Below, in pieces: positions 27,501 to 36,500 of a DNA stretch of 64,000 bases (positions within the stretch are counted from its first letter, which is position 1; the number at the start of each line of letters is the position of its first letter). The stretch covers positions 704,001 to 768,000 of the forward strand of contig CAWFQB010000005.1 in assembly GCA_963817895.1 (NCBI GenBank), given 5' to 3'. The position numbers were made by a program. This DNA comes from an uncultured Chthonomonadaceae bacterium (GTDB taxonomy: Bacteria; Armatimonadota; Chthonomonadetes; Chthonomonadales; Chthonomonadaceae).

Positions 27501-30500
27501 GACAATGGGTTCGTTCGCATGGCAACGAGCATTGGGAGTTCGCGGAGAACGGCTTGATGCAGCGCCGGGATGCCAGCATCAACGATATGCCCATACAGGA
27601 GACTGAACGCCGCTATCGTCCTTAAAAAATAATACGCTATATAGCATGAATTCCGCAATAAAATGTTTAATAGATGAGGGCTATCCACTTTCGGCGGGAG
27701 ATTGCCCCGCACAATCGGGATGCTTTTTCTTCAAACCTCCTGAGCGCAAAGCGGCGTTCAGGTTTTGGGCGTTGAAAATGCCCGTGTATATAGATCACAG
27801 GAGAATCACGACATGCGCCTGCGCACTGTAGCGCCATTGCTCGCAATGGCAATGGGAATGTTCATGGAGCCTGCCCACGCTCAACTCTCGAACTTCGAAA
27901 TCACGCTTACCAATCTCACGCCCACCATCAGTTTCGACGCGACGGATACCATTAGCCCGCCCAAAGCTCCCATGTTCCGGGCGAAAAACGATTTCTCTTC
28001 GCAGGTCTTCACGCAGCCTGTTTTCGCCACGCACGACAGCAGCTATACCCTGTGGCGAGCGGGACAGGCGGCGTCTACCGGGACGCAGTCCGTTGCGGAA
28101 AACGGATTGACCAAGCAGCCCGGCAACTTCGGCAACCCGGTTTATCTGGTTGGAGATTTGGCTTCGCATCAGGCGAGTAATGGCGGCAACGGCAGCGTAT
28201 TGTCCGTCCGCGAGGTTGCCAACCCCAATTTCAATCCGTCCAATCAATGGCACAACGCGGGCGGGAATGCGCCGGGAAGTTTCACGCCGCCATTCCCGAT
28301 AATGAACTGGGTTCCCTCACAGACCAGTGTTATGTTCAACATCGCTACCGATGCGGCGCACCCGCTATTGTCCGGCGAGTTTATGCTGGTTCGCACCAAT
28401 GACGGCTTTTCCGGCCTTGACAGCATCAACCTGTTCAATTTGCCGGGCGGTTCCGAAACGTTCGACATCTATGCCTATGACGCAGGTACGGAAGTCAACA
28501 CTGAAGCGCAAAGCGATCTGGTCTTCTGGAACAGCATCCCCAGCGGCCATACCGCCGAAAACGGCGTGATTACGCTGCATCCCGGCATTCAGGGATTGAA
28601 CGGAGGCTTTCTCAGCCCCTTTGCCTGGAACACGGCCCTGCCAGTCGGACGCATCACCGTGACCGCCGTTCCCGAACCAAGCAGCATGTGCCTGTTTGTG
28701 GCGGCAGGCATGTCCACGTTCCTGCTGTCCCGCCGCCAAAAGCGCCGGGCGCGTTAAAGCCACTTCCAAATAGCCAGGCGCTTTCAGTACTCGGCCTGTA
28801 TTTCACAGCACATGTTTCAATCCCTGACACTCCGCAGGCCATGCAGCCAGGGATTTCTAACCCCTGGCGAAAATGTGTCCGGTAGTAAAAGAGGTTCTTA
28901 TTCGCGGGAAGACCGGGGCGCGTCAGCAGGGGTGAGCGGGATGGGATGCAGCAGTCCGCGCTGAAAACTCCGCGATTCGGTGACGCGCAGGCGTTCGGGC
29001 AGAATGTAGGGGAACCGCAGCCCCTGCGACCCTTCCGCCGGATATGTGGACCCGGCGTACTGCACGGTATATTTGCGGGCCGAAGCATCCGAGCCGAACG
29101 CGATTTTGACAACCGGGGTTTTGGTCTCCGCAATGCCGTGCAGAACCGACCATTCCACAGGCCAGTTCAGCATCTCTTCCAGCCAGCCGATAACCTCCGC
29201 GTGTCCCGCGCCGCGTCCAATCGCGATATAAGCGTCCGCCTGTTCCCGCGTCGCGGCGCAGTCGAAGCGGCAGGGCAAATGCGGCACGGCGCGCGCGCCC
29301 AGCGAACGCAGCAGAACATTGCCCGGTAACGGCCCGGTAACACGCCAGGTATCGGGCGCGATTTCTTCCTTTTGGACTGTGTTCAGCGTCATGGGCCATG
29401 TAGGGTCCACAAACCGGTCGCGATACCAGATTTGCTCGAAAAACGCATGGCAGCAGGCCGGACAGCCTACCATCCGCGCCACTTCCGCCCTGTCGTCGCG
29501 CTGCCAGGCCGCCGCTAAGTCCTCCACATTTTCCAGCGCCCCCACCGCCACACGGTAACGGAGGGGAGTCGCGCCCGTATCGCGCGCCGCGTAGTGCGTT
29601 CCCCCGTCCAGGCCTTCCAGAATTCTCAGGTGCAGCCTGTGCCGCGCGCCCTGTTCGCGCAGGTGTTCCAGTTCCCCCGCATAAACCACCACCCGCATAC
29701 ACGGACGCAAGCCCTCCGCGACGGACAGCAGTTCCCATTCCTGCCAGGCGGCGATAAGACGATCCACGCGGGGCTGCCACACTTCGCGCGCCCGGTCGCT
29801 GACCCATGAAAAGCGGGTAAAGTCCGGCAGACGAAAATCAAGACGCTCCATCGTTTCTGTAAATGATTGCATTTCCGCTCCCTTTCCGCCCGTCAAAAGC
29901 AAAGGCTACCGCCCGAACACCCGAATACCTGAACACCCGCATTGTTCAGGCTTTGACCGCAACGGCCCGCATCGCTTCCAGCGTTTCTTCCATTGTCGGG
30001 TTGCTGCCCCGGCCCCACGCTTCCAGCATGGCTCGTTCGAGGTATATCCGGTTTGGCTGCGCGGAAATCGGGAAACTTCCCCGATCCAGCAGACGCTCTT
30101 CGACGTGGCGAAACAGTTTTTTCCAGATGTCGCAGTGTTCCGTGCGGTTGCGCCAATCGCCGTCAATGGCCGTGCCGGGACACTGCCCTTTGCACACAAG
30201 AAAAAAGCGGCAATCCCTGCATCCGCCATGCGCCTGCGGCGTGTGGTACAGCGCGATGTAACGCTCGTAGCCGGAACGGGAGGCTTTGGTGAAATCTATG
30301 CCGTCCTTGTTGGTGCGCCCGCAATTGCTGCGCTGCCCGTGTCCCTCTATGCCCTGTACAGCCGCCGTCGTATAAGGGTCGCAGGCCATCCATACGCACG
30401 TCGCCTGCCGATCCTTTCCCGCCAGCAGGCGTTCCATATCGGAGAACAGGTCGAATCGCAAATGGGATAGCGACGACTCCATTTCGGCAAAATGCAGCAG

Positions 30501-33500: not shown

Positions 33501-36500
33501 CCCATGATCTGCGGCAGCGGGCCGATGAAGCAGGATGTCAGTATTTTGATCGGCTTGTCGCCCTCTACGGCGATCTTCCCGCTGACGCGCCCATCGTCCG
33601 TGATGGTAATGTCGAAGGTGAAGCCCTGCGGTATCTCAAAATCGAGATAGGACTTGAAGCGAGTCGGCAGATGGTCGAGCCGGGACGCAACGGCGTTGAG
33701 CGCTGTCGTGAACTCTGTGGGGAGGGAAACGCCGGTTTTTTGCAGCAGCGCCAGCAGCGCGCCTGTGTTCAAATTGCCTTTGTCGTCGAACGCCTTTATC
33801 TCCGCGAGAGGAATGCCTTTGGGCAGAGCCGAACTCAGCGCGTTCAGGTGGCAGGCATCCAGAAGCGATTTGATGGGCGTAAGCGGAATTTGGAGCGGAA
33901 ACGCTGGGATCGGCCTGCTCGAAGCCGCCCTGCGCGTTGAACTGTTTGCCGTCGTAACTGAAGACGGGAACCTCGAATTTGAACTTGCCGAAATCGCCGA
34001 AGTCCGCGTAGCACCAGGTAGTCCCGCCCTCGGTTTTGAACTGAAGGACGAGGAAGGGGGAGGAGACGGCGCGAATGGAAAGCCCGTTTTTGACATCGGC
34101 CTCGACCCGCAGGCGCGTCACGCTGCTGTCATCACCTTTGCGGTATGTGTTGAAAACATTCACGGACGGGGAGCCGTCAGATTTCGTGCCAAACAGCGTG
34201 TTTGTCTGATTCGGGATGCCGAACCCGGCGTCCATCGCGAAACTGATGTCGCTGCCCAGTTGCAGGGTGAAGTTGGCGGCTTCGATATTGCCCGTGCCCC
34301 ATTTCAGATGCAGGCTGCCCACATTGGTATCGGGGTAATTGATTTCCAGGGGGCTGACCAGATGATCTATCGTCAGCGTCGCGCCCGCCGCGTCCGCTTT
34401 GAAATCCGCTTTGCAGGGCGTGTTGGTGGCGGGGAACAGCGATTGCAGACCGTTGGGCATTCCCGTGAACCACAGGTCTACCTCCGAGTTAAGGCCCATT
34501 TGGTTTTGCCCGCGCTGTCGCGCGTCCCGGTTATTCCGACGGACTCCCATCCGAGATGAACGGCAGAGGGGGTGCCGGGAATGGGAATGGAAACGTCGGC
34601 GCTCGTGGCTTTGAAAACCAGCCCCATCGTTGCTTCCTTCTTGTAAAGCTGCACGGAACCGGCAACCGCAACGTCGGGGTCGAAATGGAGTCCGCCGGCA
34701 ATGGTAACGTCCCAGGTATACGCGCTGGCAGCGTCCAGGGGCTGCGCGGTATCGGGCTTTTTGGTTGTGGATTTAAGGGCTTTTTGAATGGAAATCGCCA
34801 CGCTGTTCGCCGTCATGCCGCCGTCCGGCAACGTGACAAGATCGCCCTTGCCGGTCTGTCCGGCGTCCAGGGTAAACGTTCGGGCGTCCGAAGTGGTCAT
34901 CACGCTGGCGGCTAAAGTAACATTGTGGTCGAAAACGGTGGCGGCGATGGAACCGGAAACGCTCCAGTCGGTTTTCCCGTCGTACTGAAAACTGAGGTTC
35001 GTGCCGGTGAATACCAGTCCGTCCACAACCGTGACGGTTTCGGTGTCCTGCGCCGTAAGCAGCGCGTGTATCGCCCCGGAAACCTGTGTCACGCCGCTGC
35101 CCGCGCTTGCATCCCTGGCGATATGTACGGTAGTGGTGTTAATGCCCTGATTGGCGACGCCGAACGGCAGCGTCCAGCGCGTGGCGCAAACGGCGTCGAA
35201 GGTAAAAACGCCCGTGTCGGGAACGGCGGTCAGTTTCACGCCGGAAAGCGCGACATCGGGAACTTCGGGCGGAAGCGCGACGCCCTGCGGCAGCAGGTCA
35301 CGGACAACCGCGTTCAAATTCAGCGGCGTTTGCGCCGCCAGATCCGCTTCCAGCGTCCAGTTGGCGGCTCCCGCGGGCTTGCTTGCGGATACCGTCAGGT
35401 CGCTGTCGAACAGCAGAAGCTGGCCCTGAATACTGCCTTCTACGGTTCTGGTCGCGGCCGTGCCGGGCGTATTGACGGTCAAATTGAGCGACACGCCGCT
35501 GACGGCGAATTTATCCGGGAAAACCTGCCAGGCATGGTCTTTGCCCGATACCTGCGTTGCCAGCTGAATCATAGCGATGGATTTCGTTTTAATATCCACG
35601 CTGAGGGTGAGACTGGCAAGCGATACGTTGCCCAAACTTGCAAGCCCGGAAGGGAAGAACGAAAGGTCGGCGGAAGTGAGGCTAGACAGTTCGGTCAGGC
35701 CAAGCGCGGGCAGGGCGTTGGCTGCAAGGGTCAGAGTCCAGAGGGCAGCCGTCGCCGTCACCTGAAATTCTACAGACACGGTTGTTTGTTTTACCGTAAT
35801 GGCGGCATCCACAATTCCCGTGACGGTATTTACGTCTGCCGAACTGACGTTCAGCTTGACGCGAGTCACGGCCAGCCACGACGCTTCGGGAAAGAGGAGG
35901 GGCGCGGCATCTTGATAGGTCACGGTCAGGCCGCACGACTTTGCCGTCCCCGCTTCCGTAAAGTCAATCTCTACATTCGCCTGTGGAATGTCAAAAAGAG
36001 TGACAGCGCCGGTAAGCGCGAGGCTGCCGTCTGAGGCAGTGGCGAGATTCGCGTTTTGTACCACGATTTTATCGCCGCCGGGGAGGTGGGCGAGCAGGGC
36101 GGGAAGAAGCCCGCCGCTTTGGGCAATGCCGGCCAGGGAGAGCAGGCCGTTTTGAATGTCTTGCTGAATCTCTTGCTGCAGCTGCGCGAGCGACATAGCG
36201 GAACTCCATTTTCGGTGAACGTACCGACCGTGTGAAGAGAACAGTTGGCAGAAAACGGTGGCCTGCATAGTGGCAAGGAGTGGCCTGTGTCGGAAGCGTA
36301 GTATCAGGACGAGCTTCCCCCGTAACCTTACCAGCCATTATAACAAAAGTATTATTCGCTGTCAATAAGTTTTTTGAGGTTGTGATATTTGTATGCTATG
36401 TCAATTTTTGGCAATATATATAGGCGTATATCCTGTGTTACTTCCGGCGTGACAGTGGAAGCACACGTCCTCCACAATGAGATTGTTTTTCTCCCTTGAT

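Follow-up and report, generated by a model that had tools for sequence, protein, structure and literature searches.

The triceptide synthases (3-CyFEs: HaaB, HtkB, YhhB, YxdB, OscB, ChlB and the minviopeptin enzyme) are radical SAM/SPASM enzymes encoded beside aromatic-x-X3 motifs. In the parts of the literature available to us, the known links are His-C2/Ala, Tyr/Asp and Trp/Asp (PMC11002830), His/Lys (PMC11499958), and His/Ser and Tyr/Lys (PMC12912966), so that there is precedent for both His and Tyr at position 1 and for both Asp and Lys at position 3. An active-site residue tunes X3 by charge: HtkB D214 and HaaB H204 select X3, and D214 selects Lys (PMC11499958, available text). H-x-D is not among the triceptide motifs in the accessible portions of these three papers. 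DynA, as described in the available text of PMC11002830, joins His N to Tyr Cbeta over a span of three residues, and is a model for an N-C version of such a bond. Dynobactin itself, a short antibiotic that is released, contains two rings.

Larger substrates are also known. QhpD is a SPASM enzyme that introduces repeated Cys thioether crosslinks into a larger protein encoded by an adjoining gene. CrpC, according to the accessible part of PMC13692751, is a SPASM enzyme that puts repeated crosslinks into a larger next-door protein, as we propose here, although its links are Cys thioethers. In the His-Xaa-Ser (HXS) system, as the available text of PMC13128918 describes it, two radical SAM enzymes and HxsD mature a protein with five basic repeats, a peptidoglycan-binding domain and a signal peptide, adding 8 Da before export; the system is antiphage, acting when DNA enters, and 99.7% of its members are from Pseudomonadota. 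Finally, a three-gene "rSAM module" has been published from the Thermus phages Cumys and phiMa, and DNA modification has been guessed as its role (PMC11437467; bioRxiv 10.1101/2024.08.14.607894). Repeats are unmentioned in the accessible text of PMC11437467 (no matches to HxD or histidine), which gives no substrate.

The window analysed here, a stretch of 64,000 nucleotides from an uncultured Chthonomonadaceae bacterium, contains a comparable trio with the following features.

36337..36365, minus strand: predicted consensus sigma-70-type promoter (12/12, extended -10), located 140 nt 5' of the giant gene, from consensus match
34490..36196, minus strand: giant protein, N-terminal piece (about 570 aa, start MSLAQ), collinear with the relative L001:5043-9887
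33899..34490, minus strand: giant protein, middle piece (about 197 codons), matching the family consensus in alignment A2
31352..33899, minus strand: giant protein, C-terminal piece with beta-sheet, short helix and HxD tail, from a structure model
31373..31897, minus strand: array of 24 His-x-Asp motifs, proposed substrate, from tail sequence and genome-wide density
31631..31651, minus strand: aromatic/Gly spacer TSFFGKA in the middle of the array (12 motifs before it, 12 after), putative hairpin tip, from tail sequence
31324..31351, minus strand: second, weak promoter-like site (10/12) between the giant gene and the enzyme gene, from consensus match
29946..31115, minus strand: radical SAM/SPASM enzyme, 389 aa, from CxxxCxxC, C-terminal Cys and profile searches
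30306..30323, minus strand: enzyme loop C265-G-R267-T-N269-K270, whose Arg267 and Asn269 change together with position 3 of the adjoining repeat
28898..29872, minus strand: DUF483-like partner, 324 aa, from homologs, alignment, Atlas, fusions and predicted complex

The genome-wide survey's note had called this system undescribed, a claim that goes too far in view of the available text of PMC11437467, where the gene trio is already published. The window's genes fit the phage-type definition of a radical SAM gene, a DUF483-domain gene and a third gene, which is an HxD protein in Cumys, phiMa and the window. Gene order is shared; the enzyme is 52-53% and the partner 31-36% identical to the corresponding genes of Cumys, phiMa and phiLo, and in the module's unnamed third gene every His lies in an H-x-D motif (54/54 in Cumys_13, 53/53 in phiMa_29). 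The carriers differ, being a 1,615-aa cellular protein in the window and the product of a gene in the tail-fibre block in the phages. The cyclophane chemistry proposed for the giant-protein H-x-D tails is known from short peptides.

A protein of about 1,600 aa, split in two by the assembly (g05138 and g05136), had been reported; the split itself is borne out, but the gene lies in three pieces in three frames, separated by two single-base frameshifts. Relative to L001, whose giant gene is unbroken, as had been stated, and collinear with that of the window, the assembled gene has a base too many near 33,899 and lacks one near 34,490, both probably assembly errors. The middle piece lies inside the ORF at 33636-34550. 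The giant protein is acidic, has a start that is not signal-like and lacks a Pfam domain; its N-terminal piece carries neither a signal peptide nor a Pfam family. In the model, the C-terminal piece (pLDDT 66; tail portion below 50) is a long meandering beta-sheet, hydrophobic on one face, followed by a short helix and the HxD tail, and its beta-strand amphipathicity reaches 2.57 against a shuffle maximum of 2.34. The AsmA/TamB-like repeating beta-groove lipid-transfer proteins are characterised by an extended, open beta-sheet whose inner face is hydrophobic. Structure matches of this pLDDT-66 model are barrel walls of a generic kind (best Z 10.2, rmsd 13.4, 214 aligned). The model hints that the carrier might be a beta-sheet protein that lacks a signal and is hydrophobic on one face, for which lipid or membrane binding would be the likeliest role. 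No protease or transporter gene was seen in the operon.

The 24 H-x-D motifs occupy residues 734-908 of the ORF at 31352-34096 (nt 31897-31373) at a spacing of 6-10 aa; this is the identical array that had been placed at residues 626-798, numbered from a later start codon. One stray motif lies outside it, at residue 553. In 20,000 shuffles of the 175-aa array (25 His, 25 Asp), the mean was 3.5 motifs and the maximum 11, and a scan of the genome in all six frames gave 17 motifs per 120 aa for the array and 7 for the runner-up, in agreement with the survey's claim of the highest density. The array is without Cys. Across 38 arrays, 1,074 of 1,119 His residues lie inside H-x-D, the middle residue is never Pro, and other His and Asp are nearly absent; the repeats are acidic, as opposed to the basic ones of HXS. 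Substrates carry up to 84-93 motifs, relatives have the variants H-x-K, Y-x-K, H-x-N and Y-x-D, and some precursors have a single terminal H-x-D, which favours a bond within the motif. From its sequence, the spacer may be a hairpin tip, an aromatic turn between two arms. In 13 of 19 giant tails the number of motifs is the same in both arms; an exact-register mirror test was strong in just 4 of 38 arrays, and the window's own tail failed it (1/11, p 0.78).

The enzyme has a CxxxCxxC motif and eight C-terminal Cys that are invariant among 78 sequences and resemble those of anSME; an N-terminal RRE is absent. Consistent with the survey's statement that it falls below the NCBIfam cut-offs, all of the 25 matches listed (of 61) are far below. 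The best of those listed is DynA (NF041298; 77.5 bits, cut-off 450), with AmcB (67.4/425), YhhB (59.1/445), OscB (51.6/310), XyeB (40.8/450) and FxsB (35.1/370) also present, so that membership in any of these six families was rejected. DynA, AmcB and YhhB are among the closest matches, together with the solved ChlB, and the scores against known cyclophane synthases are low (59-78 bits; cut-offs 425-450), no better than against anSME.

The partner is probably a divergent DUF483 relative. It has no Pfam match itself, while two homologs exceed the DUF483 (PF04467) cut-off of 25 (P0181, 27.7; P0023, 25.2), and its reported Atlas score of 0.96 to DUF483-like clusters was reproduced, with DUF483 on 13-20% of cluster members. 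We also recovered the 297 homologs reported, many of which carry a methyltransferase domain that the window's partner lacks. The conserved residues are C140, C141, H198, C201 and C205. CC and HxPC had been called invariant, which holds in 45 aligned homologs but not in the Thermus phage partners, which keep CC only and replace the Cys of HxPC by His. Natural fusions join the partner to PqqD and, in some cases, to DUF364/DUF4213 "putative heavy-metal chelation" domains. A model of the enzyme-partner complex scored 0.89 (best of three controls, 0.00), at a mark that 116 of 157 solved complexes attain, as against 2 of 215 mismatched pairs. This calibration holds only roughly, because the two chains are the halves of a natural fusion and custom alignments and ligands entered the folding. 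The runs share at least 95% of contacts, with a partner pLDDT of at least 88. The partner is thus predicted to be a subunit of the enzyme.

The linkage of the trio had been put at 77 genome loci, and we find the same counts: the partner in 75 and an ORF with at least 5 HxD per 120 aa in 58. Among the best 80 of 118 viral loci, near-duplicates included, the partner and a dense HxD ORF each occur in 73, and of the 29 metagenome loci that span at least 7 kb, 24 have both. The 19 loci said to lack a clear HxD ORF do lack a dense array, yet 15 of them hold a sparser H-x-D or Y-x-D candidate, picked by eye; L070 is ambiguous, and L061, L068 and L077 have no candidate. Of 40 giant-protein loci, 31 are complete: tail and enzyme are both present in 4 and both absent in 26, no tail occurs without the enzyme, and one enzyme occurs without HxD (Fisher p 1.6e-4, for kin that are not independent). 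In this lone exception, L169, the giant tail ends in four H-x-K. The tail is an optional add-on of its carrier. Carriers include giant beta-sheet proteins, lectin-domain proteins, an FAD oxidase, exported lipopeptides and phage fibre-slot proteins, from many bacterial phyla, one archaeon and many viruses. Leader-core-like peptides occur in L055, L057, L062, L063 and L071, and 26 of 37 short substrates bear a twin-arginine-like motif. A KilA-N domain carries the array in L014, and a TonB receptor follows the locus in L033. Related loci hold HExxH hydroxylases and a B12 C-methyltransferase above cut-off. The earlier view of HxD arrays on short peptides or large-protein tails as a RiPP-like system is backed by the concordance, the fusions, the predicted complex and the following covariation.

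Arg267 is present in 216 of 226 distinct enzymes, and none of these adjoins a Lys array. Of the ten enzymes without it, seven adjoin Lys arrays, one an Asn-only array, and two have no array in view. The seven have lost Arg267 and gained Asp269, beside H-x-K or Y-x-K tails. Six of them came from a prospective search with a DNA pattern for Asn269-to-Asp, which returned seven new enzymes: four with CGLTDKE (H-x-K tails), two with CGNTDKE (Y-x-K tails), and one that keeps the Arg and adjoins an H-x-D peptide. The Lys-type enzymes form one clade (SH-aLRT 98, quick tree) with the His-to-Tyr change nested inside, and the Asp-to-Lys switch is therefore one event. The Asn-only array, at L119, is an independent case, confounded by the presence at that locus of a paralog that has the Arg. 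Six Arg-bearing viral enzymes adjoin arrays scored as Asn-type, five of them counted as mixed Asn/Asp. No dense array was found in the DNA around 42 of the 226 enzymes, where many contigs are short; no array of any kind was seen at L204, L068 or L265. The covariation is in the same sense as the selectivity of HtkB D214, to which these positions may correspond. It makes it very likely that the triplet is the substrate and that Arg267 reads its Asp. Enzyme residues that change in step with the triplet across species suggest that the enzyme pair probably staples triplets into small rings.

The aromatic-x-X3 pattern of the motifs (H or Y first; D, N or K third) makes triceptide chemistry a nearer model than HXS. 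The window shares with triceptides an aromatic-X2-X3 motif in a ribosomal precursor adjoining a radical SAM enzyme with a SPASM domain; its family differs in substrates that include giant and phage fibre-slot proteins without a shared leader, and in a DUF483 subunit that is nearly always present. A parallel to HXS had also been drawn, and the likeness stands, in that a radical SAM enzyme with a small partner matures, or here would mature, His-x-X repeats (PMC13128918, available text), with the export of the protein echoed by the twin-arginine-like motif of many short substrates; close kinship of the enzymes does not stand. Membership was rejected, as there is a single enzyme rather than the HxsB and HxsC pair, with scores of 24.8/370 and 22.8/267.9 bits; so was identity with the HXS effector, the window's protein being acidic and without a signal-like start or Pfam domain. 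HxsD (TIGR03976) has no match in the genome (81% complete), nor in the control genomes.

We propose, as the probable reading by analogy, a two-subunit enzyme that makes triceptide-like His-Asp crosslinks along protein tails. Synteny and fusions mark the genes as one unit. The radical SAM/SPASM enzyme and the DUF483-like protein are predicted to bind as a single maturase, which would recognise the aromatic-x-Asp triplet, with Arg267 very probably reading the Asp. As with triceptide synthases, the bond would run from the ring of the His (or Tyr) to Cbeta of the Asp at the third position. From precedent, a 5'-deoxyadenosyl radical likely takes the Asp beta-hydrogen and the resulting radical adds to imidazole C2, or else desaturation of the Asp is followed by addition of an imidazole N, at -2 Da per motif; this could be repeated up to 24 times along the tail. 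More tentatively, stapling might turn the disordered tail into a stiff hairpin of two arms that resists proteases and has an aromatic tip. The carrier would use this hairpin to reach or bind a surface or target, and the imidazole/carboxylate pairs may also bind metal. The broader idea is comparably speculative: a portable stapling cassette, in which a leader-independent two-subunit radical SAM/DUF483 enzyme would put dozens of His-Asp (or His/Tyr-Lys) rings into a tag grafted onto unrelated carriers, making a covalently rigid, possibly metal-lined hairpin needle for reaching and binding in cells and viruses, with a two-residue specificity switch already natural.

The same triplets could instead undergo other chemistry, such as inter-arm links, beta-hydroxylation, epimerisation, Asp decarboxylation or an HXS-like one-carbon addition by the fused methyltransferase, or the partner could be a second catalyst through its Cys/His site. 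We consider this unlikely, if the most credible of the rivals. In its favour, HXS puts +8 Da (+C, -4H) on H-x-S and no plain -2 Da ring (PMC13128918, available text), many partner homologs carry a methyltransferase domain, the equal arms of most giant tails suit cross-strand links, and the SPASM cysteines are anSME-like. Against it, position 1 is always aromatic, with His swapping to Tyr, single-motif precursors occur, the window's partner has no methyltransferase, and loci with such steps add separate epimerase-like, methyltransferase or hydroxylase genes for them.

H-x-D is a good metal ligand, and an unmodified His/Asp metal sponge, with the enzyme pair making a small cofactor or loading metal, would suit the partner fusions to chelation domains and the TonB receptor at L033. 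Y-x-K and H-x-K tails at the same gene position are unfit for an equal role, however, the enzyme residue shifts with them, and a sponge does not require that other His and Asp be scarce; this reading is improbable. Least probable by our estimate is DNA modification with the HxD protein as a bystander, as suggested for the Thermus phage module. Homologs do lie near deazapurine DNA-modification genes in some cyanobacteria (PMC11437467, available text), and the KilA-N domain of L014 bears an array, but the module's third gene is a pure HxD array two genes after a tail-collar fibre gene, and both the enzyme-motif covariation and the RiPP tailoring neighbours would be left without explanation.

If crosslinking of the triplets is correct, cyclophane stapling would not be limited to small peptide natural products but would be used densely on whole proteins, including phage tail-block proteins. 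DUF483 would for the first time be given a role, that of a subunit in an enzyme that modifies peptides, the published DNA-modification guess for the Thermus phage module would be replaced, and a leader-independent enzyme with a natural Asp/Lys switch would be a tool to staple recombinant proteins. A direct test is possible since named, apparently cultured carriers exist: Fulvivirga marina, Cohnella faecalis, Paenibacillus tarimensis and Marinicella sediminis, as well as the phages Cumys and phiMa, apparently cultured on T. thermophilus HB8.

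The cassette occupies the minus strand of the window, where its three genes follow a predicted promoter:

36365-36337, minus strand: sigma-70-type promoter (12/12 consensus match), upstream of the three genes
36196-31352, minus strand: giant gene, first of the three
31115-29946, minus strand: radical SAM/SPASM gene (389 aa), second of the three
29872-28898, minus strand: partner gene (324 aa), third of the three

The genome-wide survey's note described the giant gene as split by the assembly, with a close relative retaining it intact. The relative is confirmed: in L001, an uncultured Chthonomonadaceae genome whose enzyme is 94% identical to that of the window, the giant ORF is unbroken and encodes 1,615 aa. 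The split concerns three reading frames and not two pieces. Compared with L001, the window gene has gained one base near 33,899 and lost one near 34,490, amounting to two frame-changing indels in 4.8 kb. Relative to the same-genus genome G002, such indels number about 0.8 per kb, with 31 of 70 long frames affected; this is a rough upper figure that includes shadow frames and is not independent of the comparison with L001. Since these indels are common in this assembly, the frameshifts are likely assembly errors, as the note had it, and given the rate against G002 we held a pseudogene to be less likely.

The giant protein has no signal peptide. In the model of its C-terminal part the sheet meanders and has a single hydrophobic face, a hint that the carrier may bind lipid or membrane, and the tail is unstructured in the same model. 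This piece gave no Foldseek match and no significant PDB sequence match; its structural matches were generic beta-meanders only, and the Atlas lead was DUF6603, at 0.80 only. Within the order the cassette is patchy, being present in 5 of 41 genomes, the window's own counted.

The tail contains 24 H-x-D motifs within 175 residues, where shuffled sequences average 3.5 and reach a maximum of 11. It is the densest such array in the genome (17 per 120 aa versus 7 for the runner-up), so both the count and the ranking claimed by the survey hold. Across 38 arrays, 1,074 of 1,119 histidines sit inside an H-x-D, and the middle residue is never proline. A Phe-Phe-Gly spacer in the window tail is flanked by 12 motifs per side. 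Of 19 giant tails, 13 have arms whose motif counts are equal or differ by one, where 2.2 would be expected, under a rule framed after the arrays had been inspected and with five arrays left out (three near-duplicates and two phage proteins). An exact-register mirror is absent from the window array and strong in only 4 of the 38; most arrays fail it. Because equal arms are frequent but exact register mostly fails, a fold-back hairpin is plausible for giant-tail arrays and no more than that. The proposed hairpin may resemble the metal-bound T4 gp37 needle.

The trio recurs widely. On recounting, 75 of the 77 genome loci have the partner and 58 a dense HxD ORF; of the 19 remaining loci, which the survey had counted against the association, 15 have candidates, judged by eye, with fewer H-x-D or with Y-x-D. 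Among the best 80 of 118 viral contigs, near-duplicates included, the partner and a dense HxD ORF were each found in 73. These viral loci were recovered with an enzyme alignment; a direct viral scan with a single enzyme sequence gave none. Both are present at 24 of the 29 metagenome loci that span 7 kb or more. Carriers of the array are diverse and include giant beta-rich proteins, tectonin/tachylectin proteins, an FAD-binding protein and a KilA-N protein. In a hand-picked set of short carriers, a twin-arginine-like motif is present in 26 of 37 peptides and a lipobox in 8. Further carriers are leader-like peptides with one terminal H-x-D and the C-terminus of the enzyme itself. The latter arrangement was seen at L079:6001-7449 (phiLo), L020, L027, L030, L039 and L048. 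The phiLo enzyme carries 9 H-x-D at its own end, with no separate array gene among the six other translated ORFs, and such placement suggests self-modification or a built-in decoy. An archaeal case, in a Nitrososphaeraceae genome (L038), has a peptide with 8 motifs. A PHROGs search assigned no family to the partner, the giant protein or four viral HxD/HxN proteins.

Tail and enzyme occur together. Among 24 proteins homologous to the giant body, just 4 bear an HxD tail. We found 40 genome loci encoding the giant protein, dropped 9 incomplete ones and scored 31: tail and enzyme are both present in 4 and both absent from 26, the tail never stands alone, and one locus has the enzyme without HxD. 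In this exception, L169, the tail ends in four H-x-K, and the enzyme reads CGLTDKE in place of the family's CGRTNK (residues 265-270). A prospective search scanned genomes for the Asn269-to-Asp change with neighbours disregarded. It matched 16 stretches, 8 of which are this enzyme and 7 of those new. Four of the new enzymes are Leu267/Asp269 and adjoin H-x-K tails (in ORFs with 7, 7, 10 and 6 motifs), two are Asn267/Asp269 and adjoin Y-x-K tails, and one, which keeps Arg267, adjoins an H-x-D peptide. Searches from L169 yielded no further Lys-type locus, and a viral pattern scan returned two unrelated loci.

Over all loci, Arg267 is present in 216 of 226 distinct enzymes. Their neighbours are Asp arrays in 162 cases, Asn-rich arrays in 7, no dense array in view in 42 and Lys arrays in none; the remaining 5 are paired with R- or E-type motifs, taken for chance matches. 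The 10 enzymes lacking Arg267 adjoin Lys arrays in 7 cases and an Asn-only array in 1, with nothing in view in 2. As the Lys-type enzymes form one clade, their covariation counts as one switch with a nested His-to-Tyr change and not as several events. At one Lys-type locus (L255), the neighbour's tail is cut off. A viral locus (L119:5941-11542) carries two enzyme and two partner paralogs, the Met267 paralog abutting a protein whose array comprises 16 H-x-N and a single H-x-D; this Asn case is independent of the Lys clade but confounded. The covariation at Arg267/Asn269 follows the same logic that mutagenesis revealed for HtkB D214 and HaaB H204 (PMC11499958). Read from sequences, it is the strongest support for the triplet entering the enzyme's active site.

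The enzyme has a CxxxCxxC motif and eight invariant C-terminal cysteines, a number that would allow full ligation of two auxiliary clusters, as in anSME. Its best profiles (DynA, anSME, AmcB and YhhB) all score far below cut-off, and among solved structures anSME and ChlB are nearest to it. The partner appears to be a divergent DUF483 relative. Its model is confident (pLDDT 89) and had no Foldseek match at E <= 0.001; the best VIA match was 2guk (Z 6.6, rmsd 3.4, 104 aligned), a protein whose own function is unknown. A profile including the methyltransferase domain retrieved 1,062 cluster representatives at 1e-30, and among 17 long matches scanned, of 150 listed, the partner is naturally fused to the enzyme, a methyltransferase, PqqD or DUF4213/DUF364. 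Modelled as a complex, enzyme and partner, the two halves of a natural fusion, scored 0.89 versus 0.00 for the best control. Of 157 solved complexes 116 attained the mark, as did 2 of 215 mismatched pairs, rates that apply only roughly here. Runs share at least 95% of contacts, with partner pLDDT at least 88. The predicted interface pairs conserved patches, residues 270-298 and 318-323 of the enzyme with 11-26 and 244-251 of the partner, and follows immediately on the Arg267 loop. No similar solved complex was found for the pair.

Both halves of the proposed His-Asp bond have precedent (PMC11002830; PMC12912966): a His-C2 to Cbeta bond in HaaB, YhhB, HtkB and minviopeptin, and an aromatic to Asp-Cbeta bond in YxdB and OscB, with dynobactin as a His-N to Cbeta variant. 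CrpC, a SPASM enzyme, is reported to crosslink at protein scale (PMC13692751), a precedent for the scale proposed here. The triplet is very probably the enzyme's substrate, the ring likely forms within it, and it is fairly likely that both hold together. What the H-x-D, H-x-N, H-x-K and Y-x-K motifs have in common is the ring and not a metal ligand, which would make stiffening the likeliest shared purpose; in the Asp class, metal binding might come on top of it. Confidence in the biological role is lower than in the chemistry. The system is real and widespread and, judged by its genes, appears to work like a triceptide synthase, though it cannot yet be classed as one.

The survey had called the trio undescribed and parallel to HXS, the His-Xaa-Ser antiphage system. 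The first claim falls, the gene module being in print as a Thermus phage locus: the paper and its preprint describe an rSAM protein with two unknown proteins, one bearing DUF483, mention fusions of that domain and propose a role in modifying DNA (PMC11437467). The Thermus phage enzymes are 52-53% identical to the window's, and the module's unnamed gene, which lies two genes beyond that for the tail-collar fibre, encodes a pure HxD array. The substrate, the motif grammar and the specificity switch we found nowhere in the open-access literature, where most subscription journals are missing; nor did any paper listed from it connect radical SAM enzymes with HxD repeats, and its matches to DUF483 were mostly, by appearance, longer DUF numbers with the same prefix. 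The parallel survives in that both systems mature His-x-X repeats on proteins; they are nonetheless distinct, and the accessible portion of the HXS paper mentions neither HxD nor DUF483 (PMC13128918).

Several loci extend the range of neighbours. Y-D-D repeat proteins, a Tyr-x-Asp variant, adjoin Arg-bearing enzymes at L074:9377-9976 and L065:144-1079. An aKG-HExxH hydroxylase gene (TIGR04267, above cut-off) adjoins the enzyme in three Lys-type loci (L287, from Fulvivirga marina, L292 and L255). Small alternating (Val/Ile-Asp)n peptides flanked by H-x-D occur at L008:5610-9079, L018, L033:6018-9238 and L035, and are possibly hybrid RiPPs. At L008 they adjoin a partner fused to DUF364 and a 979-aa PF00590 methyltransferase, which we take to be borosin-like; L033 has an upstream protein of similar size and is followed by a TonB receptor. 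At L055:6419-9931, L057, L062, L063 and L071, leader-like peptides finish in one or two H-x-D (single-motif precursors at L062 and L071) and are accompanied by two further radical SAM genes. At L055 one of these genes encodes a YydG-like enzyme that scores below cut-off, the other a B12 C-methyltransferase that passes the cut-off of TIGR03975. These peptides would be the simplest substrates for bench work.

Around the cassette, the window contains:

27765-28757, plus strand: Spondin_N protein whose end resembles PEP-CTERM (score below cut-off); its gene converges on that of the partner
36546-38297, plus strand: purple-acid-phosphatase-like gene with a weak Tat-signal match, divergent from the operon
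41210-44847, minus strand: three-gene unit of an asparagine-synthase-like protein, a radical SAM enzyme and a tryptophan-halogenase-like flavoprotein
46436-47506, plus strand: DDE transposase, between two ankyrin-repeat genes (region 44901-48513)

Compared with L001, several single-base indels disrupt the purple-acid-phosphatase-like gene.
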